DNA of 64,000 bases from Planctomycetota bacterium (GTDB taxonomy: Bacteria; Planctomycetota; GCA-002687715; DRQF01). The stretch is from contig JALTLO010000197.1 in assembly GCA_027001995.1 (NCBI GenBank), forward strand, positions 14,781 through 78,780, read 5' to 3'. Position 1 is the first letter of the stretch. Each line of letters opens with the position of its first letter. Below are positions 8,337 through 62,542 of this stretch, piece after piece. The translations under genes were made by a program, and so were the position numbers. The notes under the pieces are model-generated. The model was given only the letters and a program-made list of their open reading frames with translations. It ran no database searches and was not told where the DNA came from.

Positions 8337-9170
8337 TTAGTTGGGCTGAGTGCTGGGGGTGGTCACATAGGGTGGTTGGTTTAGGCCAGCAGGGGAGGCG
8401 GTGAAAATCTCACAGCCGTCTTCAGTTACCGCCAGTGAGTGTTCGAATTGGGCACTCCACTTGTGGTCGATGGTGAGGGCGGTCCAGTTGTCGGCCAAAA
8501 TGTTTGACTTCCAATGGCCAAGATTGATCATCGGTTCGACGGTGAAGAACATACCCTTCTTGAGGGTGATGCCTGTTCCCTCCCGCCCGTAGTGATTGAT
8601 CTGAGGATCGGAGTGAAACTCCCGGCCTAGTCCGTGGCCACAAAATTCACGGACAACAGAATAGCCCTCTGATTCCGCGATGGTCTGGATGGCGAAGCCG
8701 ATGTCTCCAGTCTTGGCCCCTGGCTTGATGCGATCGATCCCGGCCATGAGGCAGCGGTAGGTGCAGTCCACCAATTTGCGCGCTTCTTCGCTGACATTTC
8801 CCACCAAGAACATACGGCTCGTATCGCCATGCCAGTTGTCCAAAATGGGGGTGACGTCGATATTGATGATGTCTCCATCCTGCAAAATTTGCTCTTCATT
8901 GGGAATGCCGTGACAGATGACCTCGTTCACTGAAGTGCAAATGGACTTGGGGAAGCCGTGATATCCCAGTGGGGCTGAGGTCGCTCCAGCTTTTTGGGTG
9001 TAAGCTTCGCAGAGGTCGTTTAATTTCTGAGTCGACACCCCTGGAATGACATAAGGTGTGATGTAGTCAAGGATTTCAGCGGCCAAACGGCCTGCTGCCC
9101 GCATACCTTCGAATTCACGTTTGCTGTGAATAATGATCTGTTTGCGATTTGCGAACATCTTCGACCCCAT
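8337..9170 (-). CDS. map: Type I methionine aminopeptidase
   Basis: Full-length match to the MetAP-I pattern, with the metal-ligand context (D..D..H..E..E) and a characteristic CHGIP motif. The start may be at MFANRK (9158). Confidence 0.9.
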   Translation of the reverse strand: MGSKMFANRKQIIIHSKREFEGMRAAGRLAAEILDYITPYVIPGVSTQKLNDLCEAYTQKAGATSAPLGYHGFPKSICTSVNEVICHGIPNEEQILQDGDIINIDVTPILDNWHGDTSRMFLVGNVSEEARKLVDCTYRCLMAGIDRIKPGAKTGDIGFAIQTIAESEGYSVVREFCGHGLGREFHSDPQINHYGREGTGITLKKGMFFTVEPMINLGHWKSNILADNWTALTIDHKWSAQFEHSLAVTEDGCEIFTASPAGLNQPPYVTTPSTQPN

Positions 9171-9312
9171 TTTCGTCCGTGATCAAGCAAAAAAACTTGC
9201 AATCCGTTACAGGGTAGACACAAACCGCCTCAATGCAAGGTTTGATCTACTCAGGGGGCAAGGAGTATAGTGTTGCGGACATCAGAACGTCGTTTTTGAA
9301 GAAAGATCTAAG

Positions 9313-24200: not shown

Positions 24201-27200
24201 AGACTCGAATCCAGGAGAGGGGTGGGAATGAGGAACGGGCCTTCTGCAAAGAAGTGAGCCATGACGTGACATCTGTGGCCAGAAGCTCATCTAAGTATCG
24301 TCTCTCCAATTCCATTCGGAGATCGGCCAGTTGGCGACCTCGATCCAATGAAGGTTTTAGACTCTCTTTGATTCCTTCCCATCCAGGTTCGGTCAGTAGA
24401 TCGCGGCTACTGCCAGGGTTTTCTAAGAGCAAGGCGAAAAGACGCCTCAAGCCGTCAAGCTGGCCACGGGAGTCTGTTTCGACGTTCTCTGGTAATCCGA
24501 GCTCTTCGCCAATGGCAATGCGACTTCGGCTAAGATCCTTTTTTGACTTTTGTGCGGCTCGAACGGCTTGGTCAATATGGTCGGCTAGCTTGGGGCTCCA
24601 ATCGCTGACTTGAATCGAATGCAACAAATGGTCATTCACGGGGGCGACCATCTTGGCAGCTGTTCCTAATGAACCGGCTAACTCTCCTAATTCATCGACT
24701 TCGCTCCGGTGGATTTCATGAACGTGGGCGAGATTCAATTGGACGCGTGGCAAGTCGCCCATGTTGGCTAGTCTTGAGGTGGCTTGAAAGATGCTGAGGC
24801 CCGGGGGTCTTCGAGAATGAATCTCTTGGACATAGTCGTTGAGGTCTTTTCTACGGTCCGTGAGTTCTTCTGCTAACTCTTCCCATTCTCCTGTACTTTT
24901 GTGGGCTGTGGCGGTCATTGCTGTCTGAAGTTGATCTAAGACATGGCGTTTGCTGGTTTTCTTAGAGTGGAGCTCTAAACAACTGGACGCCAGGCCGATC
25001 TTGCTTAAGCGATCGTGAACCACGTTGAGGGCAGCCATTTTCTCTGCCACGAAAAGGACACGTTTTCCCCTCGATAGGCAATGAGCAATGAGGTTGGTGA
25101 TCGTTTGAGACTTTCCCGTTCCTGGGGGGCCTTGCAGTACGAAGGTATGACCTTGGGCCGCCGCTATAACGGCGCTCAGCTGGGATGAGTCAGCGTCCAT
25201 GGGGCAAAGATTTTCGCCAGCAGGCAGGATCTTGTCTAGTTCAGAAGCTTGAGGGTAAACAACGTTACCCTCGAATGCCGAGCCTGGGGTTTCGACCAAA
25301 TGACGTACGACTTTGCTATTGAGAAGAGAATCTTGATGGCTCTCCAAGTCTGCCCACATGAGAAACTTATTAAAGGAGAATAACCCCAGGGCACAGTTGT
25401 TGACCACGTCCCAGCGTGGCACATCCATGATGACCTTTCTGAAGTTCTTCAGAGCAAGGTCGATGTCGACGCCGTTTTCATCTTCGGGGAGCGTCTTCAG
25501 GTGATCGGTATCCAAGCCGAAGTCTTGCTTCAACTTCTCCAATAAGGTGGTATTGATGCGCGCATCCTCGTCGCCTCGCTGAAGGCGGAATCCCTCGCGG
25601 ATGCTCTTGCGCGTCAAGTGCATGGGCAAGAGAATAATGGGTGCCAATCGTTCCAGGTTGCTGCTTTCGTTTTCTTTCCAGGACAAGAATCCCAAAGCCA
25701 AGAAGAGCGTGTTGGAGCCCGTCTCTTCCAACTCGTTACGGCTGGCTCGATACAGATCCAGCAATTTGCCGTCGAGATTTTTTTCGTCGGTGTCAACATG
25801 GACGATGCGGTTGTTCAGGTCTTCAGCCAGAATCGATACTTTACTGTCTTCATGAAGGCGATCTTTCTGAATAGTCATGTCGCGGGGTGAATTGGCTATT
25901 TGCTCGCCAGGGCGCCCGCGGAGGGTGAAGGAGACGCCACCTTCCACGGCATCTTCGAACCCTCCCAAGTCGGGAATTAAGAGAGGAATATTCTTCTTGG
26001 TTGGGCGGAAATTGAGAAGACGGTTGCGGAGGGACAAGTCCAAGAGTTTTCTTTGCCATCGACGAATGCGGCTGTCTTCCTCAGGCGCTTGTTGTTCGAC
26101 AGTTGGGGCTTCGATTGCCTGAAGGGGCACGATGGTGGTGGCATCTTCGACTTCAGCTCCCAGGGTGGCCAAGTCTTCAGGAGATATCCTTGTTGTGGTG
26201 ACGCCGAAATATTCTCCCTCGCTTTCGAATTCTTGCGAGGCTTGGGGTAGTGGGCGAATCTTGAGCTTGCGGGCTCTGCGGATGTCAATGACAGCGCAAA
26301 AGTCGTCTCCGTTGTCCAGGTGTTTCCTGCCATCACTTCTGGCAACATGAAAGGGAACTAAAGGTCGATTGGCCAGTAAGGTGGACTCGAAGACAACAAT
26401 GTCTTCAACGTCGATTCGCTTGCGCAAAGAAGTCACGTCATCGATTGTTGGTTCTGGGAAACAGTGATCGCTGACCCAAGCTCCACAAAAGGCATGACCT
26501 TTGGTCAAGACGATAATGGGGTTGAGGCCGCATTGTTCCATGACACTGGCAGCGAGGAGGGAAAGGTCCAGGCAATTGCCAACTTTGTCTTGGAGAATCA
26601 CGTCCGGAAAACGGACCTTTTGGCCGTCATCTTCAAAGCTGGCTGGCACGCCCACATAACCCAAATCTTCTCGGGCCAGAGTTTCATAAATGGATCGAAT
26701 CTGTTCGATCACGCCGTTGGGGTCACCGCTTTGGTAGCCATCCAAGATCGGAATGGACTGACGCTCTTCGTGAGTGCGGACGGTCTTTCCGATGAGTGCA
26801 TTGACCCCTCGGCTGTTCGGAAGAACAAAGGCTGCTAAGACTTCCGGGAGAGTGCTAAGACCGGGCCATTCATTAAATGCCAAGACTTCAACGGGGAATC
26901 CCTTCACGGAAGGGCTCTTGCCACGAGCCGAAACAGTTACTTCTAATTCGGTTTCTTGACGTTCGGATTGCTCTTTCAGACGATCGACGTTGAGAGGCAA
27001 ACTGATGTGCTCGAGGTTGATTTCTTCTTCTGGGGCGATTCGATCCAGGCGAATGTGAAGTTCTTCTGAGAGGCCGCTACCCAATTGAATGGCGATCGTG
27101 ACATCGTCCAAGGCCTCTGAAGAGTTGACCAAGTTGAGGCGCTTCACCACCGGAACATCGTTTTGTTGCATGGCGAAATTGACCAAACGGTCGTAATCCA

Positions 27201-27354
27201 AATGGAGCTCAACAGTGGTAGGGGGCAATTCTGGGGTGGTTTCTTCCCTATTTTCCTCTAAGTCACTTGTTTGATCTGCTTGAATCGAGGAATTCACCCT
27301 ATCCCCATCTTCATTTGAGCTATTTTCGCCGATTTTGCTGTCCTGGTCTGCCAT
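21274..27354 (-). CDS. Hhe-like giant superfamily-1 (Upf1-like) helicase-nuclease: N-terminal transglutaminase-like domain, DUF4011, AAA_11/AAA_12 helicase, Vsr/DUF559-like endonuclease fold, DUF3320 tail
   Basis: Walker A GPPGTGKSQT. AAA_12 motifs SWHYRSRHEDLISFSN and VAITRARKEL. An REase-like block (ILGIECDGSNYSDSANARDRDRIRPNVLKGLGWELCRVW). N-terminal papain-like block GNCLDLSLLAASVMEQCGLNPIIVLTKGHAFCGAW. Confidence 0.75.
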   Translation of the reverse strand: MADQDSKIGENSSNEDGDRVNSSIQADQTSDLEENREETTPELPPTTVELHLDYDRLVNFAMQQNDVPVVKRLNLVNSSEALDDVTIAIQLGSGLSEELHIRLDRIAPEEEINLEHISLPLNVDRLKEQSERQETELEVTVSARGKSPSVKGFPVEVLAFNEWPGLSTLPEVLAAFVLPNSRGVNALIGKTVRTHEERQSIPILDGYQSGDPNGVIEQIRSIYETLAREDLGYVGVPASFEDDGQKVRFPDVILQDKVGNCLDLSLLAASVMEQCGLNPIIVLTKGHAFCGAWVSDHCFPEPTIDDVTSLRKRIDVEDIVVFESTLLANRPLVPFHVARSDGRKHLDNGDDFCAVIDIRRARKLKIRPLPQASQEFESEGEYFGVTTTRISPEDLATLGAEVEDATTIVPLQAIEAPTVEQQAPEEDSRIRRWQRKLLDLSLRNRLLNFRPTKKNIPLLIPDLGGFEDAVEGGVSFTLRGRPGEQIANSPRDMTIQKDRLHEDSKVSILAEDLNNRIVHVDTDEKNLDGKLLDLYRASRNELEETGSNTLFLALGFLSWKENESSNLERLAPIILLPMHLTRKSIREGFRLQRGDEDARINTTLLEKLKQDFGLDTDHLKTLPEDENGVDIDLALKNFRKVIMDVPRWDVVNNCALGLFSFNKFLMWADLESHQDSLLNSKVVRHLVETPGSAFEGNVVYPQASELDKILPAGENLCPMDADSSQLSAVIAAAQGHTFVLQGPPGTGKSQTITNLIAHCLSRGKRVLFVAEKMAALNVVHDRLSKIGLASSCLELHSKKTSKRHVLDQLQTAMTATAHKSTGEWEELAEELTDRRKDLNDYVQEIHSRRPPGLSIFQATSRLANMGDLPRVQLNLAHVHEIHRSEVDELGELAGSLGTAAKMVAPVNDHLLHSIQVSDWSPKLADHIDQAVRAAQKSKKDLSRSRIAIGEELGLPENVETDSRGQLDGLRRLFALLLENPGSSRDLLTEPGWEGIKESLKPSLDRGRQLADLRMELERRYLDELLATDVTSWLTSLQKARSSFPPLSWIRVFLTKRALKPFVRGSLADTDTLVLDLGRIQKLREEERQLAEICDQEKRFFGHHWRGARSDWQKLQEIIAWAESFRQELAQLSHNADWVAGGFRERAIRLAVEDSDQLIGPSSLRQDMDTFLNDLLQLDHRLEALDNIVHFDKLAAFGSENDEGYFDRLGKTLDNLLDGRRDLRDWCHWSHLMARAQEKGLEELGKSLGDGSLAGENALKVFKKSLLEDWLNQQLEDSLLLRRFNSLEHERKIAAFAALDQKMISLSSEVIKSRINANLPGFSKEASAKSEVGILQRQLKLKRRHMPIRRLFESLPDLLPRLKPCLLMSPLSVAQYLSTDYPRADIVVFDEASQIPVWDAIGALARGESAVIVGDSKQLPPTSFFRTQDDEDDDPDSDMVEEVESILDECEAGGFTSLNLSWHYRSRHEDLISFSNHHYYNNRLMTFPSPGDTNNHMGVHFVQVEDAHYDRAKTRTNKNEAKAVVSDVLRRLTDPQLSQDTIGIVAFSQAQQNCIEDYLDEARREHPEIESFFGEDVAEAVFVKNLENVQGDERDIILFSICYGPDADGRVSMNFGPLNREGGERRLNVAITRARKELRVFSTLRHEQIDLSRSRALGVAHLKSFLEYADRGHVALPSNLGQRGLREAESPLNEAIAKRLRERGYKVSLHVGSSSQPIDLAIHDPDNADTFILGIECDGSNYSDSANARDRDRIRPNVLKGLGWELCRVWSGDWLQDPERVLEAIEAKLVEKSDSPPPLTEEQELANELEAEENSASITDDEEGEHLKLKLVEAVEIYRPTVIPKSNLGAEALYDENQEDAVRQVITSILVQESPVSLNLVCRRLMTTLGIDRLTSRVRNRVTTLIAELPEGEKPKIFDGVYFLGDDEPSNYRKFRTAALGEIPRQADDIHPIEIANACKRVMEEQIALPLTDLPKETARMLGFPRLGSKVKAAMDKGIEEILTKGWGILDDGQVRLPRQTPKQDEV

Positions 27355-42593: not shown

Positions 42594-43862
42594 TCATTCC
42601 TTGATCTCTGCAACCAGAGCACTTGCCAACTTCTTGTAGTCATCTAAACAGTTATGAGCTTGGGCCGAAATTCGAAGGCACACGTTGGGTGCTTGGGGGA
42701 AGTGATGGAGAGGCACTTGAATTCCGTACTTGGCGAAAAGCGTTTCTTGGAGGGGGAGAGTGGCGAAGTGATCTTCCATTAGGTCTGAAGGGCCAGAGCC
42801 AAGGGGGATGGTGGCGATGGAGCCGATCATGGAATCGGGGCAGGGCGCTTTTCTTTGAATGGCATCGAGAATGATTTCTCGCCCCGCCAAGACCAAGTTG
42901 CGATTGTGAGTTCTCAGTTCATCCCATCCTCCTGGGAAAAGTCTCGCCATAAAACCGAGGGCCTCCGGAATGCAAAGCCAAGGGGTGGGGTCACAGGTTC
43001 CTTGCCAATCGAATTCCCAACGAAAGCGGCTGCGGTGGGCGGTGGGAGCATTGGCACCATGGCTTATGACTGCTGGTCGGATGACTTCTCGGTATTCTGC
43101 TGCCACCCAGAGAAAGGCGGCCCCCTTAGGTGTGCACAACCATTTGTGGGCATTGGAAGTGTAGAAATCAGCTCCGATGCGGCCCATGGAGATGTCAAGC
43201 ATGCCTAAGGCGTGGGCACCGTCCACCAACACCATGGAGCCCGCCTTCTTAAGGCGAGAAACGAGCTCTTCGATTGGCAGGACCAGAGCTGTTGCACTGG
43301 TGACATGATCCAGGAGTGTCAATTTGGTCTTTGGGCCCACTTCCTTCATGACGGCGTCGACCACTTCCTTAGGGTCGTTGAGCGGGAAGGGCACCTGAGC
43401 CACACGGACGATGGCCCCCGATCTCTCTGCCACATAGTTCAGGATGTTTCGGCAGGCATTGTATTCATGATTAGTACAGAGGAGCTCGTCCCCTGGTTCA
43501 AACTCCAGCGATCGCAAGACGGCGTTGACGCCAGTCGTGGCATTGGTCACGAAAGCCAAGCCTTCCACGTCGCCGTCGATAAATGAAGCAAGAGCCTCCA
43601 AGGCCGGGTTCCACAGGTCAGGTAGTTTTTGCACCATGAAGTGGACCGGTTCCGACTCCAGTTGGGCCCGGAGTTCAGTTTGCTTGGCCAAAATCTCGAT
43701 GGGACAAGCGCCAAAAGATCCATGGTTGAGAAAGGTAATTGAAGGATCAAGCTGCCAGAGGTGTTTGTGTGGACTTTGCATGGCAGGAGGGTACCTTATT
43801 CTTGAAGATTTCTGCCAGAGGTGTTCTTGGCTGGAAATGAGGAAAGGTGTTTTCTGGGGCAA
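42594..43862 (-). CDS. Aminotransferase class V (cysteine desulfurase / isopenicillin-N-epimerase-like)
   Basis: N-terminal ..FLNHGSFGACP and a PLP-lysine context (SNAHKWL). The start is probably the internal Met near 43781. Confidence 0.7.
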   Translation of the reverse strand: MPQKTPFLISSQEHLWQKSSRIRYPPAMQSPHKHLWQLDPSITFLNHGSFGACPIEILAKQTELRAQLESEPVHFMVQKLPDLWNPALEALASFIDGDVEGLAFVTNATTGVNAVLRSLEFEPGDELLCTNHEYNACRNILNYVAERSGAIVRVAQVPFPLNDPKEVVDAVMKEVGPKTKLTLLDHVTSATALVLPIEELVSRLKKAGSMVLVDGAHALGMLDISMGRIGADFYTSNAHKWLCTPKGAAFLWVAAEYREVIRPAVISHGANAPTAHRSRFRWEFDWQGTCDPTPWLCIPEALGFMARLFPGGWDELRTHNRNLVLAGREIILDAIQRKAPCPDSMIGSIATIPLGSGPSDLMEDHFATLPLQETLFAKYGIQVPLHHFPQAPNVCLRISAQAHNCLDDYKKLASALVAEIKE

Positions 43863-46188: not shown

Positions 46189-47664
46189 ATGTGCGGATTC
46201 ATTGGTATTTACGGCCCCGACGGGGTGGACGTTGCTCCTGAGATTTATGAAGGGCTGCTGGCAGTTCAGCACCGGGGGCAGGACGCAGCCGGCATTATCA
46301 CCTTCACAGATGCTTTTCATCTGCGAAAAGATGAGGGGCTTGTCATTGAGGTCTTTGGCAAGAAACACATGCAAAGGCTTCGGGGCAACCTGGGACTGGG
46401 GCATGTGCGTTATCCGACGATCGGGGCTTCCGGTGGCGAAAACGCTCAGCCCTTTCATCATACTTACCCTTTGGGTGTTGCCATGGCTCACAATGGCAAT
46501 GTCACCAATGTCGATGAGTTGATGGCCGATTTTGTTGACCGCAAGCGCACCCGCCTTAACTCAACTTGCGATGTTGAGATTATCCTCTGGGTTTTTCAGG
46601 ATGTCTTGGCCAATAGGCTGCGGGCTAGTGGCGAGCTTGGTCCTGAAGATGTTTTCGCTGCGGTTGAAGCCGTGCACCAAAAGGTGAAAGGCGCTTACTC
46701 TGTGGTGGCGACGGTGGCAGACTTAGGCATGGTCGCCTTCCGTGATCCTTATGGCATCAAGCCAATCATCTTTGGCAAACGAGAAGACGAACTCGGAACA
46801 TCATTCGCTTGCGCTTCTGAAAGTGTCGTGCTGGATGTCAACGGCTACACGAAGACTCAGGATATCGGCCCAGGTGAAGCCCTTTTCATCGACGAAAACC
46901 GTGACATTCACCACAAGAAGTTGGGCAAGGAAGAGCACACACCTTGCATTTTCGAGTGGGTCTATTTCTCACGTCCAGATTCTTTCTTGGATGACGTCTC
47001 GGTTTACAAGACTCGACGACGCTTTGGCGAGGCTTTGGCAACACAATGGAAAAACAGTGGGGCACCCTGGCCAGATGTTGTCATTCCGATTCCTGATTCC
47101 TCCCGGGATGCAGCCTTGGCAATGGCTCATGATTTGGGAGTACCCTATCGGGAAGGTCTGGTGAAGAATCGTTACATCGGTCGTACATTCATCATGCCAG
47201 ATCAACAATCTCGCCAGAAGAGTGTGCGTCGCAAGCTGAATCCCATCCCTCTGGAATTCGAAGGCAAAAACGTTCTTCTCGTGGACGACTCTATCGTACG
47301 GGGCAATACCTCGAAAAGAATCGTCGAAACAGCAAGGGCTTCCGGCGCACAGAATGTTTATTTTGCAGTGACAAGTCCGCCCTTGGTTGCTCCGTGTCCT
47401 TATGGCATTGACATGGCTAGCAAGCGAGAATTTATCGCTGAAGGTAAGACGGTGGAGGAGATTACCACTTCCTTGGGGGTCGATCATCTGGTCTATCTCG
47501 ACCGCGGCGCCATGAACAAAGCCGCTCAGGTTGGCAATCCCAAGATTAAGTCGTTTTGCAATGCCTGCTTTACTGGGGTTTACCCCACAGGTGATATCAC
47601 CGTTGAGCGCCTTCGGGCCTTAGAATCCGAACGCGCTACCCGGCGAGATAACATTCCGACTTAA
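46189..47664 (+). CDS. purF: Amidophosphoribosyltransferase
   Basis: N-terminal MCGFIGIYG (Ntn Cys1), a PRTase motif, and a C-terminal Fe-S cysteine cluster. Confidence 0.9.
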   Translation: MCGFIGIYGPDGVDVAPEIYEGLLAVQHRGQDAAGIITFTDAFHLRKDEGLVIEVFGKKHMQRLRGNLGLGHVRYPTIGASGGENAQPFHHTYPLGVAMAHNGNVTNVDELMADFVDRKRTRLNSTCDVEIILWVFQDVLANRLRASGELGPEDVFAAVEAVHQKVKGAYSVVATVADLGMVAFRDPYGIKPIIFGKREDELGTSFACASESVVLDVNGYTKTQDIGPGEALFIDENRDIHHKKLGKEEHTPCIFEWVYFSRPDSFLDDVSVYKTRRRFGEALATQWKNSGAPWPDVVIPIPDSSRDAALAMAHDLGVPYREGLVKNRYIGRTFIMPDQQSRQKSVRRKLNPIPLEFEGKNVLLVDDSIVRGNTSKRIVETARASGAQNVYFAVTSPPLVAPCPYGIDMASKREFIAEGKTVEEITTSLGVDHLVYLDRGAMNKAAQVGNPKIKSFCNACFTGVYPTGDITVERLRALESERATRRDNIPT

Positions 47665-47689
47665 CTTGAGGGCTGCGGCCTCACTCCAG

Positions 47690-50407
47690 TTAGCGCTCCT
47701 CAATTATTTCCAATCGCACAGGACAAACCTTGAGTTCTGCAGTTTGGGTGATGGGATCGTAGCCGGAGCCCGTAAGGATATTGACGGGTGTTTCGTTAAA
47801 CGAGAATGAGCAGAAGACAGTCCCACGGGGTGAGCGCTTGTTGGCCTCCACCACGATCTCAACCGAGCCCCGAGCAGACGTCATGCGACAGAGCTTCCCA
47901 TCGGTAAGGCCCCATTTTTCGACGTCGTCAGGATGAATTTCTAAGGTCTCTTGGGGCAGTAAATAGTCGATGCCAAAGGAACGTCCCGTCTGGGTACGGG
48001 AATGATAAGACTCAAGTCTTCGTCCAGTGGTGAGCCATACGGGATAGGATTCGCTGATCACTTCTGCCGGGTCACGCAGATTGACAATCTTGAGTTTGCC
48101 CTTACCGCTGGGGAATTCATCGATATGCAGAATCGGCGTCCCTGTGTGTTCCTTATTGGGAACGGGCCATTGATATTCCCCTTGATCAATGCGATCCCAA
48201 TCCAAGCCAGCATAAATAGGGGAGAGTGAGCAGAGCTCATTGAAGACATCTTTGGCAGATTCATAGTCGAAACCCGAGAAACCAAGACGTTTCCCAAGCT
48301 CCGAGATGATCCACCAGTCAGGTTTCGCATCTCCTGGAGGTGGCACGGCCGCCCGAAGGCGCTGAACGCGACGCTCGGTGTTGGTACACACACCATCGGT
48401 CTCTCCCCAACTTGATGCTGGCAAGACCACATCGGCTAGGACGGCGGTCTCTGTCATGAAAAGATCGATGACGACCAAGTGGTCCAATGACTTGAGAGCA
48501 TGTTCGCAGTGGTCGCGGTCGGGATCCGTCACCACGGTGTTCTCGCCACCGATGATCATGGCTCTGATTCGGTCGCCACACTGATCTAATGCGGTGACTT
48601 TCGTGATGCCTCGTTCTAAGGACACAGGGGTGCCCCAAGCGGCTTCGAACTTGGCCTGGTTCTTGGGATCATCCACAGGTTGAAAACCAGGATAGTTGTT
48701 TGGAAGAGCTCCAACATCTCCAGCACCTTGAATATTGTTTTGGCCCCGCATGGGGTTGATGCCCGTTCCTTCTTTGCCGATATGCCCAGTGAGAAGGGCA
48801 AGATTGCTCAAGCTTTGGACGTTGTCAACACCACAAATGTGCTCGGTGATTCCCAAGGTGTAGTAGATGGCGGCCTTCTCAGCTTCACCGTACCAATGGG
48901 CGGCCTTCTCGATATCTTCCGCCGGCACTTGGCAAATGGCCGAAGCCCAACTGGGTGTGAATTCTTTGAGGTGCTGTCTGAGCTCCTGAATCCCTTCCGT
49001 TCTTTCGGCGACAAATTCTTCGTTGACTAAGCCGTCACGGTCGATGACATGGGCCATCGCTAAGAGTAGGGCAACATCGGTTCCGACTTTTAGCGGCAAG
49101 TAGAGATCGGCGATTTCGGCTAATTGAATTTTTCTCGGGTCGGCCACGATGAGGCGGCCGCCATTGGCCAGCCCACGCTTGATGCGAGTCGCCGCCACTG
49201 GATGGCATTCCGTCATGTTGGTGCCGATGCAAAAATAGACGTCGGGCTTTTCCATGTCTTCCAATGGGTTTGACATGGCTCCTCGTCCGATGGTAGCCGC
49301 CAGACCGGCGACAGTTGGAGCATGTCAGGCACGGCTGCAATTATCGATTTGATTGAGTCCCCAACCCGCTCTCATCAATTTTTGCAGGGCGTAAGAAGCT
49401 TCATGGGGGGCGCGGCCGGAGGCGATGGCATAGATGGCCTCGTTGCCATGATCGCGGGAGACCTTTTCGAAACCTTTGGCCGCTACGTCGATGGCTTCTG
49501 TCCAACTGACTGGTTCGAGTTTGCCATTCTTGCGGACGAGGGGAGTTGTGAGCCGATCATCGTGTTGAACAAAGTCGTATGCGAATTGCCCTTTGACGCA
49601 AAGAGCGCCCAAGTTGGCTGGTCCATCCATGGCCGGTTGGATGCCGACAATCTTGTCTTCTTTGGACATAATGTCGACGGAACAACCCACGCCGCAGTAG
49701 GTGCAAATGGTTCGTGTTTTCTTAATGTCGCCAACAGTCTTCCGGTCTCGAAGTGCCTTCTTGTCAGCCAAAGCACCGGTGGGACAGGTCTGGACGCATT
49801 GCCCACAGAAGGTACATTCTGATTCTCTGAGGTCACTGTTGAACTCGGTTGTGATCTGAGTGGCGAACCCTCGGTTCATCACATTGATGGCGTAGTCCCC
49901 TTCACGTTCTGCGCAGACGCGAACACAGCGGTAACAAGAGATGCACTGGTCGTAGTCTCGCAAAATGAAGGGATTGAGGTCTTCCGTTCGACTGGTTCCA
50001 GACTTGGCTCCAGCGAATCGCCCGGTGATCGCGTCATAGCGGTTGGCGAGTTGTGTGAGTTCCTGAGAAGCGAAACCGGAGAGCTCGGGGGTTTCAACTT
50101 GACGATTCTCAGAAACAACCAGCTCCAAGAGTGTCTTACGATCCTTCTCTAATTTGGCGGTGTGGGTATGCACAACCATACCCGGGCTGGCTTTTGTTGT
50201 GCAAGAGGCCACAGGGTTGCGAAATCCTTCGACTTCGACCATACACATGCGGCAACCTCCGAATGCGTCCAGTCGCTTGTCGTAGCAAAGTGTTGGCACT
50301 TCTTTCTTGTGGCGCTCGCTGATTTCGAAGAGAGATTCCCCATGGGAGAATGCGACGACTTCGCCATCGAGAGTCAGTTCATAAGTGTTCTTGGTCTTAT
50401 CAATCAT
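47690..50407 (-). CDS. fdhA: Selenocysteine-containing formate dehydrogenase alpha subunit (NuoG-like N-terminal Fe-S domain + molybdopterin domain); in-frame UGA (Sec) at 49327..49325
   Basis: Track ORFs 49325..50407 and 47690..49276 are in the same frame and are separated only by the TGA. The read-through gives ...IDNCSRA-U-HAPTVAGLAATIG..., which matches the FDH active-site SR(V/A)(C/U)H(G/A)P(S/T)VA motif. The N-terminal part has 2Fe-2S/4Fe-4S cysteine clusters. Confidence 0.8.
49294..49313 (-). promoter_or_regulatory. SECIS-like hairpin 11 nt downstream of the fdhA UGA (stem UGUCGCC/GGCGGCUA, loop GGUCU)
   Basis: mRNA reads UGA-CAUGCUCCAAC-UGUCGCC-GGUCU-GGCGGCUA. The spacing and the GGUC loop closely parallel the E. 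coli fdhF SECIS, which encodes the same VAGL peptide. Confidence 0.6.
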
Positions 50408-52080
50408 GAGTTTGCTTTCTTGATGGTTGAGGCCAAGTCGTCTGGGAACAGGCGTAATAGGCTTTCAGTGATAAGGGGAGCTGCCATCCCCAAGCCACAA
50501 GCGGAGGATGACTTCATCACTTGCCCCATATCTTCAACTTCTTCTCGCCAAGCGGCAAATGTATCAGGGCCTGCGCTGCCAGCTAATCGTTCGGTCAATC
50601 TTTGGGTCCCGATGCGGCAAGGGAAACACTTGCCGCAAGATTCATGGGCAAAGAACGCCATGGCCTGTCGTCCCAAATCGACCATGTCTCGTGTTTCGTC
50701 GAATATCATGATGCCCCCAGCACCTAAGAAGGAGCCCTTGGCTCGAACGCTCGGTTCGTCCAGGGTAACCGCGTAGGCATCTTCCGCCCCCAAGAACCCT
50801 CCCGACAGTCCCGCCATGGTGACTGCCTGAAGTTTCTTGCCCCCTGGGATGCCGCCGGCCCATTCTTCGATCAAAGTCTTCAGCGGTAGTCCTAAGGGCA
50901 CTTCGTAGTTTCCAGGCTTTTCAATGTCACCGGACAGACTGATGAGCTTCGTCCCTTTGTGATCTCCAAGTCCCAAGGCCGCATAGCGTGCAGCACCATT
51001 CATGACGATCCATGGGACGCTGGCCAATGTTTCAACATTGTTAACGGCAGTGGGCAGATCATTGAAGCCATGAGTCACCGGATATGGGGGACGATTGCGG
51101 GGGAAGGGGTGTTTTCCTTCTAAACTATTGAGCAAGGAAGTCTCTTCACCGCAAATGTAGGCACCAGCACCTCGGCGCAGGTGGATTTGGAATTCGTAGC
51201 CTGACCCCAGAATGTCTTTTCCTAAAAGGCCAGCGTCGCGAGCTTCCTGAAGAGCCTGCCCTAGTGTTTTCAATGTTTCTGGGTATTCGTAGCGTAAGTA
51301 AATGAAACCTTCGCTGGCCCCACAGCAAAAAGCGGCGAGGATCATACCCTCAATAACGAGGTGGGGGTCGTGGTCTAAAAGGGTGCGGTCCTTAAAACAT
51401 CCGGGTTCTCCCTCGTCAGCGTTGCAGACCACATACTTAGGAGACCCCTGGGCATCGGCAACGGCCTGCCACTTTTCTCCCGTAGGAAAACCTGCTCCCC
51501 CTCGGCCAGCCAAACCACTGGCCTTCACTTCTGCCAGAGTTCTCTCTCGCCCCAGATCGTTGAGGGCTTTTTCTGCTGCCAAATACCCCCCACTTGCCTG
51601 GTAACCAGCCAGTGATTTTCTGTCCGGATCGCGAATCTCGGCGAAAACACATTCTTCCAGACCACCAGGATTTGGGATGGGGCGTGGTGTTTCCGGGGTG
51701 GGAACGATGGCATCGGGAGCAATCTGGTAGGTGCGATTGCCTCGAAGTGCTGGGATTGGCACATCGCAGCGTCCACTGCAAGGCATCGATCTTGCCCCAT
51801 CACCTTGCATGGCCTTCAAGATTTCTTGAGATCCTTTGAGGCTACAAATCGGACCTGTGCAGATGCGCAAATCATCGTGGCTCCCGCTTTCCATACTCAG
51901 ATGGTCGTAGAAAGTCACGGTCCCGAATAGCTCCGCTTTTGGGATGCGGAGTGCCTTGGCTATGGCCAAGATGGCCTCTTCCGTAATCTTCAAGTCGCGT
52001 TCGTGAAATGCGTGCAACATACCCAACAAAGGAGCTGGTTGGGTCCGCCACTCTTCAATGATCTTCTCAGTGGATTCCAT
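50404..52080 (-). CDS. NAD(H)-binding formate dehydrogenase beta subunit (fused NuoE-like 2Fe-2S + NuoF-like FMN/NADH/4Fe-4S)
   Basis: The N-terminus has the NuoE cysteine pattern (C..C...C...C). NuoF motifs GGAGFPTG and ESCGKCFPCR. Overlaps the fdhA start by 4 nt. Confidence 0.8.
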   Translation of the reverse strand: MESTEKIIEEWRTQPAPLLGMLHAFHERDLKITEEAILAIAKALRIPKAELFGTVTFYDHLSMESGSHDDLRICTGPICSLKGSQEILKAMQGDGARSMPCSGRCDVPIPALRGNRTYQIAPDAIVPTPETPRPIPNPGGLEECVFAEIRDPDRKSLAGYQASGGYLAAEKALNDLGRERTLAEVKASGLAGRGGAGFPTGEKWQAVADAQGSPKYVVCNADEGEPGCFKDRTLLDHDPHLVIEGMILAAFCCGASEGFIYLRYEYPETLKTLGQALQEARDAGLLGKDILGSGYEFQIHLRRGAGAYICGEETSLLNSLEGKHPFPRNRPPYPVTHGFNDLPTAVNNVETLASVPWIVMNGAARYAALGLGDHKGTKLISLSGDIEKPGNYEVPLGLPLKTLIEEWAGGIPGGKKLQAVTMAGLSGGFLGAEDAYAVTLDEPSVRAKGSFLGAGGIMIFDETRDMVDLGRQAMAFFAHESCGKCFPCRIGTQRLTERLAGSAGPDTFAAWREEVEDMGQVMKSSSACGLGMAAPLITESLLRLFPDDLASTIKKANS

Positions 52081-52099
52081 GGGTCGTCTCTAGGGGAAC

Positions 52100-52879
52100 T
52101 TAGTAGTCGAGGCCCAACTTCTTGAGCTTGGGAGTGATAGTGTAGCGGCAATAGGGATTCGCGTTTTTCTTCCGTCGGTAGTAGTCCTGGTGTTCTGCCT
52201 TTGCCTTCCAGAAGTGGCTGGCCTCGGTGATCTCCGTTACGATGGGGTCTGCGAATGCCCCAGACTTTCCTACTTTCATCTTGGAGTCTTCAGCGATTTC
52301 TCTCTGCTCAGGGCTGTGATAGAAAATCACTGAGCGATATTGAGTCCCTACGTCGTTGCCTTGACGGTTGAGAGTTGTAGGGTCGTGGAGTTTCCAGAAC
52401 CATCCCAGGAGCTCACGGTATTTGATCTTGCTTGGATCGAAGTGCACTTGGACCACTTCCGCATGACCGGTGGTGCCCCGGCAAATGTCCTCGTAGCTTG
52501 GATCGTTCAGGTGCCCACCCATGAATCCGGATTCAATCTTGGTGACACCTTCTACTTGTTGCAAAACAGCTTCGATGCACCAATAGCATCCGGCACCAAG
52601 TGTGGCGATTTCGTCGTGGGAAGTTTGTGGACTCATTTTCTTGGTTTCCTTGGGCCGAGGATTGTTGTTGGTGGCAGTGTCTTCTGGCTTGGAGCCGCAA
52701 GCAAAGAGAAAGCAACTAACGAAGGTGAGGGTGACAACGAATATTCTGAACATAACATTCCTTACTGGGCGCGATGACTTGAAGCCTATGATAGCTGATA
52801 CACCCAAGATCGCCATATTGTTGCATGTTCGATGAGGATGGGAGGCGGTTTTTTTGACCGCAGAGGTTTCAGCCCTCAA
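52100..52879 (-). CDS. msrA: Peptide methionine sulfoxide reductase A (secreted/lipid-anchored)
   Basis: GAGCYWC active-site motif and the conserved C-terminal region. N-terminal hydrophobic/lipoprotein-like leader. The true start may be the internal Met near 52751. Confidence 0.85.
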
Positions 52880-55865
52880 GTGCTGCTAATGTCTGCCAGA
52901 AATTGAGCCAGCGTTGTCGCTCCTCAGAGGGCAAAAATACTGGGAAATTTGGCCCATGGCATTCGGTCAAACGGGGGTCGGCGAGCCAAAGGCTTCGCTC
53001 TCTTTGAATGACAAATGGGGTTGATCCGCTTAAGCCAGCTTCATTGGCATCCAAAAATCGAGAAGCGGCAGAAAGGGCTCGTTCCCAGAGTTTGGCCTGC
53101 ATGTCTGAATTGATGTTCTCTTGTCGTGCCAACCATAGAAGACTTGCTAACGCATCTCTTTCGATTCCTCTGGGTTGAGGCCCAAGGGTGCCACGGGGGG
53201 GAAGGCTGCCTTGACGTCCTGGGCCACGGCGTCGTCCCCGGGCAATGGCATCCAGCCAAGCGTTGCTCGCTTCGTTGGCCAGTTTGTTCCAGGTGAGAGT
53301 GCGGGCTCGGTCAATGGAGCCCCGCAGGGAAGGGGTGTCAAGAGGTCGGCCCATTTTCCTGAGAACTTGCAAATCTTGAATTCTTTTCCTGAGGCGGCTG
53401 AGCCTGATGGATTTCTTGTGGCCATCAATAACCTTCAAGGCGCCTTCTAAATTGCCTTGATCTGCTAAGGCTCTGGCCCATGTTGCCGGGAGTCCTTCAT
53501 GGAGTCCCCCTAAGTCGATTCCAGCTTTTGCCGCTTTGATGGAAGCTGCGAAATCCCCAGCCGCCAAGTTCGCCATGGCCAACCGTGGCCACAACTCGTC
53601 GTGTTCCGGATGAATCCGAGCTGCAGTTCGCAAGAACTCCAATTCGGTTTTTGCCGAAACCTGAAAGTAAATGTCGCTCAGGGTACGGTCTAAATTTTCT
53701 CTCTTGACGCGGTTCCCTCCGTACATCACTTCCACGGCGTTCTTGGTTTCCCCCGATCGCAAAAGAGCAATGACCAAGTGCTTTCTGGCGAAAACGCTTC
53801 CAGGTTGGAGTGAAAGGGCAATCCAGGCGTGTCTCGTCGCCATATCGATGTCCGCTTGTGATCGTTGATCGGCAAGGGGAACACCCAATGGGCGATTGCG
53901 GCTGGCTAACATGGCGATGTGGTGGTTGATCCAAAAGTCATCCGGGTGGGCCACGAAACCTAACCACAAAACATGGAGAGCTTCTTGACGTTCGTTTTCC
54001 CGAACCAAGCTGATGGCCAAAAGGAGGATGCTTTGGGTGTTTCGTTTCTCTAAACCTTTCTCCCTGGCCAATTCCAAGAGAGCTTTTCGATCGTTCTCCA
54101 AAGCCACAGAGCGCAGGCGACGGCGCCAAGGATCTGTGTCCAAGAGTTGGCTGGTGCTGACGAGCTTGGACCAGAGTGATTCAGGCCCTTGGGCTTTCAT
54201 GTTTCTCGTCGAGGCGGATCGCCCTCCGGCTTGCCGTTCTCGGGCGGCCCAGTCGTCTAAAGCTGCCAATATTTTTCTTCGCAAATAGGGCGGTTGGGGG
54301 TCAAGTCTTCGAAAAGCAGATTCTGGGGAGTGCTTTTCCATGTCGATCCCGAATGTGGTGAATGCGGCGGCGTACTCCTTGCGGCCAACATTCGGGTCGT
54401 CAATGGGTAACTGACGGATGTGGTCGATTTCCTTGGCGAAAGTTTCCTGAGCCAGGGATGCCTTTTCTTTGGCTAACGCCGCCTTCTTGTGGGAGGACAA
54501 TTGCTCGCGGGTGAGGGCAAGCTTGGTATGGAGGTCTTTCGGTCCATTGTCTCGCAGCAGAATAAGATCGGCCCGCCTGAGTGCTTCTTCCATGGCATCC
54601 CAGGATTTCTCCTGTGATCTCAAGTTCGCCGTTCGGAGAGCCCCTTCAAAATTCGTTCGCATTTCGATGAGGTCTTCGTTGCGGGCAGTGATCCAATTCC
54701 ACCATAAACCACCGCTCACCAGCAGAACCAAGATGACCAAGGCACCCAAAGCCATTGTGAGTCGCCTTGCTTTGCGCTCTTCGATGAGTTTGTGGTGGGC
54801 GGCTTGGGTTTCTATTTTCGCCCCTTGGAGGTCTTCTTCTAATTTGTCGATATAGCTGGCAACCACATCAGCGACGATAAAAGCGTTTCTTGGGCGCGAT
54901 GCAACCACCGGCTCCAAACACCAAATGGACAGTTCTTTGATTTCCCTTGGCCCGTCAGCCGCGGAAATCCGTGTCACGGCGTCTTTCATATCCCCTTTGG
55001 CCGCAATTGTCGCTGCATGTACGCCACTCTCTGGGAGGTGAGGTGGGGCTCCCGTGAGTATTTCGCAGAGGATGCCCCCTAAGGCGAAGACATCGCAGCG
55101 TTCGTCGATTTCATCGATTTCGCCCCGGGCTTGCTCCGGGGACATGTAGCCAGGAGTGCCCAAGACGGAACCACTCATGGATTCAGAGCTTCCACTGCTG
55201 CTGCGGATGGTCCTCAGTGAATTCTGGTTTCTTGGTTGTTTGTTGGGTGTGCTCTGATTCGGGTTCTTGATGAGCTTGGCAAAGCCCCAGTCCAAGACCT
55301 GCACTTCGCCGAATGCTCCGATCATGATGTTTGATGGTTTGAGGTCGCGATGAATGACACCACGGGCGTGAGCGAAGGAGATTGTCTGACACAAAGAACT
55401 GAATATTTGGATCAGATGGCCAAGATTCTCTTCGACGGTTCTTCGTCTTTTCAAAACATCGGTGAGGGTTTCGCCCTTGACCAGCTTCATGACAAAGAAA
55501 GGGCGGTCCCGTTCGTCTAAACCAGTTTCATAAATGGGCACGATGCCTGGGTGCTGGAGTTGGCCGGCAATCTGGGCTTCTTCAAGAAAACGAGCCATGG
55601 CCGAGTTTTCGTCGATCCGGTCGCGACGGATAACCTTGATGGCGACGTCTCTTTCTAAGCGATCATCTCGGGCGCGATAGACAATGCCCATACCACCTCG
55701 GGCAATCTCGTCCAGCAAACGAAATCGACCGCACCAACCGTTGTGCTCCGTCTCTTCTTCCTCATCGTCGTTTTGGGAAAAGACTTCCCCCAATCCCAAG
55801 TCCCAGACAGATTCCACGTCTTCTTCTTCGAAGGCTGACTCGTCTTTGTCTTCTTCGTGACTCAT
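52869..55865 (-). CDS. Ser/Thr protein kinase with TM segment and TPR-like C-terminal domain
   Basis: [31 protein letters not shown] and SPEQ kinase motifs. The start abuts the stop of the ECF sigma gene. Confidence 0.85.
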
Positions 55866-60115: not shown

Positions 60116-62542
60116 TCATATCGTTTTTTCCCGTTGGGGCAAGGTGCGGATCATGAGGAAGGGAATGATGAGGATGACTGCGCCTACCACATAGGGGCTT
60201 GCATAGCTGAATCGCCAATAGAGGAGTCCCCCCAGGACAGGACCAACAGTTCGCCCCAAAGCACCGATAGAGCGATAGACACCGATGATCCGACCTTGCT
60301 CGTGTTCCGGAGCATAGAAGGAAACCAAGGACGTGAGACAAGGGATGACCATGGCAGAACCGGTGGCCATGAGGCTAAGCCCGACATAGAGCAAAAAGAC
60401 GCTTCCCAAGTTGCCGGCCATGGCAATCAAAATGAGCCCAGGGATGAGAATCTTGAGCCCCTTTTGGGTGACGACTGATTCACCGATCAATGCTGCCTTT
60501 CGTCTGACGTAACCTCCTTGTACCATCGATAGGACGACACCAATGAACACGAAAAGCATGCCGTTTTCTGCCGCGCTGTAGTCCAGCTTTTCGAACGTCA
60601 AGAAGGTCAGCATGTTTTCGGCGGCACCAAAAGCCGAAAGGAAAATGAAATTGACCCAAACGACGGCAGATACCCCAGGATAGCTTTCCATGTGGAAGAG
60701 CTTGATGGGGTTGATGGTGCGATAGAGTTTACCTTTGCCTCGTTTCTCGGGAGGAAGAGTCTCTGGGAATTTTCTCAGGACGAAAACAAAGTTCCAGACG
60801 CAAAGGAGAAAAGCGATCAGAGCCGGAGCAGAGAAGGGGTTGATACCCCAATCGGAGCCTCCACTGAGCCACTGGTGAAGAGGAATAAATGCGGCGCTAA
60901 GTCCGCCAATTGCCGGCCCCAAGATGAATCCGAGACCAAAGGCAATGCCAATGATGGCCATACCTTTGGAGCGAGTTTGCTCGGTGGTGGTATCAGAAAC
61001 CGCTGCAGTGGCTGTTGTGATATTGCTGCCCATGAGACCGGAGAGCAAACGTGAAATGACGAGCAGCAAGAAGCTGCCAGAAAACACCCAAATCAAATAG
61101 GCCACAGCATTGCCGAGAATCGAGAAGAGCAAGATGGGGCGGCGACCGACGCGGTCGGACACAGCTCCAAAGACTGGAGCCATGGCGAATTGAAGAAAGG
61201 AGTAGAGGAAGACTAAGAGTCCGCCGAATAGGGCCATAGTGGCTTTTGGGTTGTCTGAACCTCCGGTGATGCCCCGAATTCCTTCCATGAGGGCACCGAA
61301 CAGACCGGTCTCACCTTCTATGGCATTGTAGTAGTTGAGCATCTCTGGGAAGAGGGGAAACATGATGGAGAAACCGATGAGATCGATGAACAAAGTCAGG
61401 AACATCGTTTTCAGAACACTTCGGTCTTTGGGTGAAAGGGCTCCGTCAGGATACTTGTCTAACCCAAGGTAGGGGCATGTCTCGCATTGCTTGGGGGCGT
61501 GGCAACACCCCTGTTCGGGAACTTCAATGGGACAAGCACGGGGAATCGGGAGTTCTGGGGAAGTAGGTGTTGCTGAAGTAGACTCATCCTGAGGTAACAT
61601 GACATCTTTGGCAAAGTCCTGTGCCCAATCCTCATCGTCATTGAGGCATCTCACCACATGGAACTCGCTCCCACCATGTCTCAAGAATATCTCTCTCAGG
61701 CCGATACCTACCTCTTCTTGGGTTTCTAAATTGTCGACCACGAATGCTGGGCAAACCACGGTGATTTTCTTGACCCCATTTTGGGCCATCTGGATGATTG
61801 TCTCTTCCGTACTTGGTGCTAACCAAGGTTCCCGACCGAATCTTGACTGGAAGGTGAGGTGAGTGTGTTTCGGATTGTGCTTGGTTCCCTGTGCTAAGAG
61901 GGTGGCGGTTTCGACGCATTGATCGAAGTAGGGGTCGCCTCCTCGGATGCGGCGGATGGGATAGCCATGAAAAGAGAAGAGCAATTCTTCAGGAGGATCC
62001 GCTTCGAGGCTCTCGTTGATCTTCTGGACTGTGTTGTTGATATAGGCCGGACTCTTGTGGAAGTTCTCGACAAAGGTGATCTCCATTGGCCCTATTTCTC
62101 TCAGCGCCTTGTCGAGGGCATCTCTGCAAGAAAGTGTGGTGGCTTCGCAAAACTGAGGAAACATGGGAATCACCCGGACATGCTCGCAACCCCTGTCCTT
62201 TAGTTCTCTCAGTTGTGAGGTGACGGAAGGGGGGCTGAGAATGTAGGAGAAGGCTAGTTCTATTTGCGTTCCATCAATGTGGGTTTGAAGCTTCTCAACA
62301 AATGATTCCGTAAACTGAAACAGCGGAAAGGTGGAGCCAGTCCAAATGCTTCTGTAGGCCGCGGCCGATTTGGGGGAGCGAGAAGGGAGGATGAAGAGGT
62401 TCAGCACCAGTTTCCACACCAAATCTTGTTTGTCGACCACACGGGGGTCGCCAAGAAATTCTCGGAGGTATTCCTTCACATCGCTGACTTGGGGGCTTTT
62501 GGGAGAGCCCAATTGAATCAAGAGAATACCGAGTTTCTTCAT
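60116..62542 (-). CDS. hemH: Ferrochelatase (N-terminal ~330 aa, with Cys-rich C-terminal extension) fused to an MFS transporter (C-terminal ~430 aa)
   Basis: The N-terminus matches ferrochelatase (LLIQLGSP..., conserved His/Glu regions). The linker CPIEVPEQGCCHAPKQCETCPY resembles the 2Fe-2S ligand cluster of some ferrochelatases. The C-terminal half has 12 TM helices and MFS motif A GAVSDRVGRRP. Confidence 0.7.
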   Translation of the reverse strand: MKKLGILLIQLGSPKSPQVSDVKEYLREFLGDPRVVDKQDLVWKLVLNLFILPSRSPKSAAAYRSIWTGSTFPLFQFTESFVEKLQTHIDGTQIELAFSYILSPPSVTSQLRELKDRGCEHVRVIPMFPQFCEATTLSCRDALDKALREIGPMEITFVENFHKSPAYINNTVQKINESLEADPPEELLFSFHGYPIRRIRGGDPYFDQCVETATLLAQGTKHNPKHTHLTFQSRFGREPWLAPSTEETIIQMAQNGVKKITVVCPAFVVDNLETQEEVGIGLREIFLRHGGSEFHVVRCLNDDEDWAQDFAKDVMLPQDESTSATPTSPELPIPRACPIEVPEQGCCHAPKQCETCPYLGLDKYPDGALSPKDRSVLKTMFLTLFIDLIGFSIMFPLFPEMLNYYNAIEGETGLFGALMEGIRGITGGSDNPKATMALFGGLLVFLYSFLQFAMAPVFGAVSDRVGRRPILLFSILGNAVAYLIWVFSGSFLLLVISRLLSGLMGSNITTATAAVSDTTTEQTRSKGMAIIGIAFGLGFILGPAIGGLSAAFIPLHQWLSGGSDWGINPFSAPALIAFLLCVWNFVFVLRKFPETLPPEKRGKGKLYRTINPIKLFHMESYPGVSAVVWVNFIFLSAFGAAENMLTFLTFEKLDYSAAENGMLFVFIGVVLSMVQGGYVRRKAALIGESVVTQKGLKILIPGLILIAMAGNLGSVFLLYVGLSLMATGSAMVIPCLTSLVSFYAPEHEQGRIIGVYRSIGALGRTVGPVLGGLLYWRFSYASPYVVGAVILIIPFLMIRTLPQREKTI

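Follow-up and report, generated by a model that had tools for sequence, protein, structure and literature searches.

The locus considered here lies on the minus strand of a 64,000-nucleotide stretch of DNA (hereafter the window; contig JALTLO010000197.1 of the assembly GCA_027001995.1, from a Planctomycetota bacterium) and raises the question of how an in-frame TGA is read. Single-frame translation shows that the two open reading frames (ORFs) 49325..50407 (360 amino acids) and 47690..49276 (528 amino acids) are in the same frame. An original prediction, made from the letters of the window, took them for one formate dehydrogenase (FDH) gene with selenocysteine (Sec) at the active site. We conclude that these split "genes" very probably constitute a single FDH alpha gene with a Sec-encoding UGA, belonging to a two-subunit enzyme that resembles FDH1 of M. 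extorquens AM1 (MeFDH1).

One reading frame across the TGA

The full-length alpha gene would extend over 47690..50407 (minus strand) and encode a protein of 905 amino acids including Sec361. The translation of these 905 codons contains a single internal stop (...GLNQIDNCSRA*HAPTVAGLAATIGRGAMSNPLEDM...), and the residues found right after this stop in the joined translation (NQIDNCSRA*) are HAPTVAGLAATIGRGAMSNPL. The continuity of the frame is observed directly. In the joined protein, the Pfam domains are arranged in the order Fer2_4 (residues 10-83), Fer4_Nqo3 (residues 146-213), Molybdop_Fe4S4 (residues 229-282), Molybdopterin (residues 285-707) and Molydop_binding (residues 791-896), the NuoG-like N-terminal part corresponding to one [2Fe-2S] and two [4Fe-4S] clusters. 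When scored with U entered as C, the joined sequence passes the NCBIfam model TIGR01591 (Fdh-alpha equivalog) with 736.8 bits against a cutoff of 666.25.

A different interpretation is that the TGA is a genuine stop, in which case the locus would be either a pseudogene or a pair of genes, the first encoding a 360-amino-acid Fe-S protein and the second a 528-amino-acid molybdopterin protein starting at the ATG 49276. The gene callers of three public resources follow this interpretation and yield exactly the 360- and 528-amino-acid products from the same DNA (ENA ERZ23495147 scaffold_427, Logan SRR10312491 and NCBI GCA_015485455.1). An ATG is indeed present in the same frame, 51 nucleotides (nt) downstream of the TGA, and TGA is the commonest stop codon of the window. 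It is an ordinary stop in 16 of the 34 long ORFs of the window, including the fdsB-like gene located directly upstream on the same mRNA. As TGA terminates all these ORFs, and even the upstream gene of the same transcript, the recoding of UGA is local to this codon and does not reflect a change of the genetic code.

The TGA at the metal-ligand position of the active site

The UGA codon (49325..49327, minus strand) is predicted from alignment and conservation to be read as Sec361, a ligand of the Mo/W centre. In a phmmer search against the PDB, the TGA column coincides with the Cys that ligates the metal in three enzymes of solved structure (7vw6, 7qv7 and 6tg9). The best PDB match of the alpha subunit is 7vw6_A (M. 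extorquens FDH1, CTRL-C-HASSVAAL), with an E-value of 1.3e-193 and residues 10-899 aligned to residues 71-978. The Cys of 7qv7 (FdhF of the T. kivui HDCR, CARL-C-HAPTVAGL) is aligned to the same TGA, and 6tg9_A (FdsA of Rhodobacter capsulatus) matches the alpha subunit with an E-value of 1.4e-182. In the alignment with fdhF of E. coli K-12, Sec140 corresponds to residue 361 of the window protein. The original prediction had placed the TGA within the conserved FDH motif, and the alignments with characterized alpha subunits, including U140 of FdhH, locate it at the Cys/Sec position of the active site and not outside it.

The other residues of the site are also present. His141, Arg333 and Lys44 of FdhH correspond to His362, Arg554 and Lys272 of the alpha subunit, all conserved, and the four cysteines of the proximal [4Fe-4S] cluster (Cys8, Cys11, Cys15 and Cys42 in FdhH) are kept as Cys235, Cys238, Cys242 and Cys270. 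The complete active site is found in neither ORF alone. The position of the TGA, exactly at the metal ligand, and the incomplete site left in each fragment both argue against a genuine stop.

Conservation of the TGA in the relatives

Relatives of the gene were collected by scanning GTDB, with each species represented by a single genome; at least 596 species genomes contain a relative, and 80 loci were examined. The TGA is present at the site in all the informative loci (79/79), the 80th being lost at a contig end, and neither TGC nor TGT was detected at the Sec codon of these 79 loci. The loci with TGA are distributed among approximately nine phyla: Planctomycetota, Gemmatimonadota, Latescibacterota, Poribacteria, Verrucomicrobiota, Vulcanimicrobiota, Myxococcota and Chloroflexota, together with metagenome-assembled genomes (MAGs) of Burkholderiales. 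Position and conservation of the TGA are direct observations.

In these 79 relatives the reading frame is kept as well, and the 16 codons separating the TGA from the downstream ATG (HAPTVAGLAATIGRGA) are conserved as protein, which indicates that they are translated. The Met encoded by this ATG is an invariant internal residue (G-A-M-S-N-P-L) without a conserved start context. On the basis of this conservation across the relatives, both the pseudogene and the two-gene interpretations were rejected.

A search of 5.8 billion proteins gave a further indication: the 120 best matches are all fragments of 525-546 amino acids whose alignment is confined to the C-terminal 58% of the query. This suggests that the homologues have been split by annotation at the same place. 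Mis-annotation by standard pipelines, which had been expected from the window sequence, is thus encountered both in the three public records cited above and in these 120 homologues. Several of the homologous C-terminal fragments are named "molybdopterin-dependent oxidoreductase" by NCBI; in a cluster look-up, no source-given name was found for the two fragments of the window.

A conserved hairpin downstream of the UGA

The UGA is directly followed by the 11 nt CAUGCUCCAAC and then by U-GUCGCC-GGUCU-GGCGGC-UA. The segment GUCGCC-GGUCU-GGCGGC (49296..49312, minus strand), supported by RNAfold, covariation and RNAalifold, is the candidate upper stem-loop of a selenocysteine insertion sequence (SECIS). 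Its stem of 6 bp is formed by 49312..49307 and 49301..49296 and its loop by 49306..49302. The distance between the UGA and this stem is 12 nt, and the base of the stem defined in the family (49313/49295) is located 11 nt after the UGA. In short segments, RNAfold gives this hairpin as the fold of minimum free energy (-10.1 kcal/mol); a 24-nt segment has a z-score of -2.6, and 2 of 200 shuffled sequences fold equally well. The single sequence of the window is suggestive of a hairpin, and the structure is proved by comparative data, on which we have relied because the single-sequence z-score is significant on 24 nt only.

The comparison set is composed of 76 distinct sequences of relatives, in which a stem of seven pairs was defined. 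In this helix, 99.2% of the cells are paired, and none of 500 column shuffles reaches the values of the actual alignment, either for the covariation score or for the paired fraction. When the 3' arm is slid by 1 to 3 nt, the pairing falls to 17-65%. Two pairs of the stem display compensatory changes on both sides, at synonymous sites (22 and 14 sequences). The first, between the wobble bases of a Val and an Ala codon, is without exception: UA in 54 sequences (GUU/GCA), CG in 20 (GUC/GCG) and GC in two (GUG/GCC). The next pair outward, between the wobble bases of a Thr and an Ala codon, is GC in 58 sequences, CG in 11, AU in two and UA in one, and is unpaired in four. The same helix was independently predicted by RNAalifold. 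The codons of the hairpin are frozen at their synonymous sites (GCC in 75, GGU in 74 and CUG in 76 of the 76 sequences), and every synonymous form occurs among the flanking codons for Ala, Pro, Gly and Arg. The loop GGUCU is found in the window and in 74 of the 76 distinct relatives, the two others having GGGCU. The covariation of the hairpin is a direct observation, and such compensatory changes, preserving a structure 11 nt downstream of the TGA, are not expected in a decaying pseudogene. Taken with the conservation of the protein, they make the interpretation of the TGA as a genuine stop almost certainly wrong.

Several observations weigh against the assignment of this hairpin as a SECIS of the known type. 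In contexts of 40 and 66 nt, the z-scores of the fold are -0.7 and -1.2, respectively, and are not significant. The window hairpin forms six of the seven family pairs; its outermost position is U-U, one of the four unpaired cases. In E. coli, a bulged U is recognised by SelB. This bulged U (U17 of the E. coli minimal element) is absent, and a U-G wobble, conserved in 75 of the 76 sequences, is found instead, the stem being fully paired in the family. The covariation favours this fully paired register over the bulged register of Rfam. Finally, the window matches the Rfam model SECIS_3 (RF01989) with 39.5 bits (E = 8.9e-8 in a permissive search of 301 nt), below the gathering score of 63.

The search of the whole window with Rfam at gathering thresholds gave no match, and the window hairpin does not match SECIS_2 (RF01988). 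The relatives score between 46 and 57 bits against SECIS_3. The match to SECIS_3 covers the full model (positions 1-59) and extends over 49272..49330 (minus strand), including a possible discontinuous lower stem. We do not claim this extended lower stem, which is paired at 67% and displays no convincing covariation. The original prediction of an element similar to the SECIS of E. coli fdhF is therefore upheld for the 11-nt spacing, the GGUCU loop and the homologous codons, to which the covariation in the relatives and the sub-threshold match to SECIS_3 are added; the resemblance does not extend to the bulged U, nor is the fold significant beyond 24 nt.

Selenocysteine machinery and a second candidate selenoprotein gene

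The UGA might also be read through without Sec, with Cys or Trp inserted through near-cognate readthrough or by a tRNA that is unusual or acts as a suppressor, in an organism devoid of Sec machinery. What speaks for this, and against Sec insertion, is that no Sec machinery gene was detected in the approximately 90 kb examined of a multi-megabase genome. The genes selA, selB and selD were found neither among the 34 ORFs of the 64-kb window (Pfam) nor in about 26 kb of additional flanks, taken from the same metagenome at both ends (precomputed Pfam). Similarly, neither a tRNA-Sec nor any other tRNA was found in the window (ARAGORN) or in two flanking loci, and no tRNA and no SelA, SelB or SelD domain is located next to the gene in 60 related loci. 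However, linkage of the sel genes to fdhA is reported to be unusual in Planctomycetes, and other planctomycetes with the same fdhA-nuoEF operon have full sets of sel genes (PMC4807772). The absence of sel genes from 90 kb consequently says little. Moreover, plain readthrough requires no element such as the conserved hairpin, with its SECIS loop of the SelB-binding kind, its spacing and its match to SECIS_3. A second gene of the window, described below, belongs to a curated selenoprotein family and has its TGAs on the cysteines of a CxxC motif. We consider decoding of this UGA by anything other than Sec as very improbable.

This second gene (5571..6862, minus strand) is a candidate Trx7/PDZ selenoprotein gene with the motif F-R-U-V-P-U-R-D-C-K around two in-frame TGAs (6692..6690 and 6683..6681). 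It passes the NCBIfam model NF041199, "Trx7/PDZ domain-containing (seleno)protein", with 364 bits against a threshold of 300, and its UVPU is aligned to the CVPC redox motif of full-length Cys homologues. The gene independently supports the decoding of UGA as Sec. Conversely, the FDH gene directly attests, as far as can be judged from sequence, to the decoding of UGA as Sec in this planctomycete, and it supports the reading of the Trx7/PDZ gene as a selenoprotein gene; the support that the original prediction had drawn from the FDH for this UVPU candidate is in line with the family match and the Cys alignment.

According to a 2026 review, the Trx7/PDZ family is of the CxxU type, with one Sec. 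Among the metagenomic relatives of the gene (loci L090-L169), 44 distinct sequences contain TGA-xx-TGA and 25 contain TGY-xx-TGA. Two hairpins are found after the second UGA in these relatives. Both groups conserve the distal one, GACGGGC-AGGUY-GUCCGUC, which is degenerate in the window itself, with four of seven pairs. The proximal one, AAGGACU-GCA-AGUCCUU, is located about 10 nt after the first UGA and folds far more stably in the sequences with UxxU (mean of -5.7 versus -1.4 kcal/mol), which hints at one SECIS per UGA. Directly downstream of the Trx7/PDZ gene, three co-directional ORFs (726, 164 and 500 amino acids; 1136..5480, minus strand) have no Pfam match. They are called as genes in the ENA contig and may form an operon with the Trx7/PDZ gene.

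A protein with the class-V aminotransferase fold (Aminotran_5; 42594..43862, minus strand) was considered and is neither SelA nor a confident Sec lyase. It matches SufS, CsdA, the selenocysteine lyase SclA and PvdN weakly, always far below the NCBIfam cutoffs, and a role in the mobilisation of sulfur or selenium is speculative.

The beta subunit and the redox partner

The gene located upstream of alpha (50404..52080, minus strand) encodes a candidate diaphorase (beta) subunit of 558 amino acids, a fusion of a NuoE-like and a NuoF-like part identified with Pfam, NCBIfam and the PDB. This gene shares 4 nt (ATGA) with the alpha gene, its TGA stop overlapping the alpha ATG. The Pfam domains are 2Fe-2S_thioredx (NuoE-like, residues 5-92) followed by Complex1_51K, SLBB and NADH_4Fe-4S (NuoF-like); these domain architectures and the adjacency of the two genes are observed directly. 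With NCBIfam, the protein matches nuoF_fam (1e-133) and, weakly, FDH-gamma/NuoE models at residues 2-92. The motifs for flavin mononucleotide (FMN), NADH and the N3 cluster are intact (GRGGAGFPTG, NADEGEPG and ESCGKCFPCR). The only end-to-end alignment of beta in the PDB is obtained with the beta subunit of M. extorquens FDH1 (7e5z_B; residues 17-547 versus 51-561). Pfam, NCBIfam and this alignment all agree with the fused NuoE/NuoF partner proposed from the sequence.

The fused beta gene is found upstream of alpha in 56 relatives, directly adjacent in most of them. In many Poribacteria loci, the approximately 5 kb preceding the Sec-FDH alpha gene contain no gene for a NuoE-NuoF fusion, and in a few others this gene is located 1-3 kb further off (loci concerned: L018, L030, L031, L039-L041, L050-L052, L055, L056, L066, L070, L073 and L079). 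In Poribacteria, the redox partner or the operon layout differs.

While containing Sec, the enzyme might depend on NADP(H), function chiefly in the reduction of CO2, or constitute one module within a complex that is larger or electron-bifurcating. The scores of the NuoF-like module point in this direction and away from a simple NAD-linked enzyme: its top PDB scores are obtained with HydB, NfnB and HoxF, subunits of bifurcating or hydrogenase complexes (389-346 bits), compared with 287 bits for the MeFDH1 beta subunit. As these top relatives are electron-bifurcating hydrogenase and Nfn-type subunits, NAD+ may not be the sole partner. The Poribacteria loci without an adjacent beta gene likewise indicate that the partner can vary. 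On the other hand, the beta subunit ends right after NADH_4Fe-4S, without extra C-terminal ferredoxin domains, and no hydrogenase or ferredoxin-type gene was found flanking the alpha-beta pair. The sole end-to-end structural homologue of beta is the subunit of the NAD+-dependent MeFDH1, and the best PDB relatives of alpha are the NAD+-dependent MeFDH1 and R. capsulatus FdsA. We hold a partner or role other than that of a simple NAD-linked FDH to be unlikely.

Neither fdsD nor the sulfurtransferase gene fdsC/fdhD was found flanking the alpha-beta pair. This absence weighs against the overall interpretation and, more specifically, against an enzyme of the FdsGBACD type; the locus fits the two-gene MeFDH1 subtype. 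The "NAD-linked FdsAB-type" enzyme of the original prediction is consequently retained as an alpha-beta pair with a NuoE-NuoF fusion, of the MeFDH1 type, and abandoned as a member of the FdsGBACD group; its NAD linkage is suggested by homology.

Proposed enzyme and mechanism

Our best inference from the sequences is that the locus encodes a MeFDH1-type alpha-beta enzyme, linked to FMN and NAD(H), with Sec replacing Cys. The region 47690..52080 (minus strand) would encode a cytoplasmic two-subunit FDH with Mo or W bound to a bis-pyranopterin. With the ribosome on the UGA, SelB.GTP.Sec-tRNA(Sec) would bind the stem-loop 49312..49296, 11-12 nt downstream, and the UGA 49327..49325 would be recoded to Sec. 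In the protein, Sec361 would ligate the Mo/W atom, and His362 and Arg554 would complete the formate site. Electrons would pass from the proximal [4Fe-4S] cluster to the NuoG-like Fe-S chain of alpha and from there to the NuoE-NuoF fusion protein (50404..52080), where the [4Fe-4S]/FMN module would receive them and NAD+ would be reduced. The net reaction would be formate + NAD+ -> CO2 + NADH, in principle reversible. Sec insertion itself, the metal, the NAD(H) partner and the direction of the reaction are those suggested by the homologous enzymes.

Genomic neighbourhood and other genes of the window

The genes flanking the alpha-beta pair encode, according to Pfam, an MsrA lipoprotein, a Ser/Thr kinase and a PurF-like amidotransferase. 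The MsrA gene (52100..52753, minus strand), whose product has a lipoprotein-like signal, precedes the co-directional fdsB-like gene by 20 nt. It was rejected as a selenoprotein gene: its motif GAGCYWC contains Cys and there is no in-frame TGA. Among the relatives examined, the order MsrA-fdsB-fdhA is common only to the closest one (L004), and a functional link of MsrA to the FDH genes is doubtful. A scan of 47400..53100 for promoters and terminators detected sites no more frequent than in shuffled sequences, none of them usefully placed. Genes with PSCyt1, PSCyt2, PSD1 and DUF1501, which are planctomycete markers, are found in the neighbourhood.

In the ENA and NCBI assemblies alike, a break separates the contig with the Trx7/PDZ gene (scaffold_5159 / WFTN01000152) from the contig with the FDH genes (scaffold_427 / WFTN01000045, WFTN01000516). 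The position of the ENA break, worked out from coordinates, corresponds to 8743..9193 of the window, which bridges both contigs.

Two other large proteins are encoded in the window. The first (2026 amino acids; 21274..27354, minus strand) contains DUF4011, AAA_11/AAA_12 (superfamily-1 helicase), an MTES_1575 restriction-endonuclease-like domain and DUF3320; it is a giant helicase-nuclease, of a kind often seen in defence or DNA-repair contexts. The second (808 amino acids; 60116..62542, minus strand) is a fusion of a ferrochelatase domain (residues 1-311) with an MFS transporter of 12 transmembrane segments (residues 380-763), and may link haem synthesis and transport. In the extended contig, its gene adjoins those of an Rrf2 regulator and of a NorB-like haem-copper oxidase.

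Significance and comparison with known systems

The main value of this analysis is a correction of annotation: the FDH gene and at least 120 of its closest homologues are recorded as truncated proteins. As public records split the gene in this way, metabolic reconstructions of such MAGs may miss a complete FDH and its requirement for selenium. Findings of this kind are already known. Among bacterial selenoprotein families, FdhA is described as having the widest distribution (PMC13188914), and Kim et al. (2016) described a Sec-containing fdhA in an operon with nuoEF, unlinked to sel genes, in the planctomycete P1 from Porphyra umbilicalis (PMC4807772). By this published description, P1 is similar to the organism of the window: it is of the same phylum and has a Sec-fdhA, a nuoEF-like operon and unlinked sel genes. 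It is a different organism, and neither the SECIS nor the breadth of the clade was analysed in that paper (PMC4807772).

The interest that remains concerns a large clade whose members all have Sec at this site, a slightly atypical SECIS without bulge, and the fact that no Sec member of the NAD+-dependent MeFDH1/Fds group has been characterized biochemically. Detailed studies exist for three NAD+-dependent metal FDHs (MeFDH1, CnFdsDABG and RcFdsABGD), all of them Cys enzymes (PMC13397495). We tentatively propose, as a possibility somewhat short of an even chance, that the gene is part of a large uncharacterized clade composed of Sec versions of the MeFDH1-type NAD+-dependent alpha-beta FDH. The phyla of the Sec-FDH clade (Planctomycetota, Poribacteria, Gemmatimonadota, Latescibacterota and Verrucomicrobiota) are mostly marine and sponge-associated and not strictly anaerobic. 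If this proposal holds and the enzymes are oxygen-tolerant, they would represent a new, possibly faster class of soluble NADH-coupled CO2/formate catalysts. The SECIS of the clade would, in addition, have a stem paired throughout and lack the bulged U.

The catalytic domain of E. coli FdhH (fdhF) is homologous to the alpha subunit (37% identity over 694 aligned positions, E = 6e-162). In fdhF, 11 nt separate Sec140 (ARV-U-HGPSVAGL) from GGUUGCAGGUCUGCACC, which is located on the V-A-G-L codons homologous to those of the window hairpin. Both elements have a spacer of 11 nt and GGUC in the loop. They differ in that the fdhF element belongs to Rfam SECIS_2 (87 bits) whereas the window matches SECIS_3 below threshold, and in that a bulged U and an A-U closing pair belong to the fdhF stem, the stem of the window family being paired throughout and including a conserved U-G wobble. 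In addition, FdhH lacks the NuoG-like N-terminal Fe-S extension, and its partner is hydrogenase 3, not a NuoEF diaphorase.

The FdsGBA(C)D enzymes of Rhodobacter capsulatus and Cupriavidus necator (6tg9, 6vw7) are homologous to the alpha subunit over its full length, and their NuoF-like FdsB is homologous to the beta subunit. They are cytoplasmic and NAD+-linked, as proposed for the window enzyme. In contrast to the window locus, which has none of these features, they have a separate FdsG (NuoE-like) and FdsB, an operon including FdsD and FdsC/FdhD, and a Cys ligand. The closest counterpart in architecture is the FDH1 of M. extorquens AM1 (7vw6, 7e5z), a tungsten-containing, NAD+-dependent alpha-beta enzyme encoded by the same two-gene arrangement with a NuoE-NuoF fusion. 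The metal ligand is a Cys in MeFDH1 (CTRL-C-HASSVAAL), whereas it would be a Sec in the window protein.

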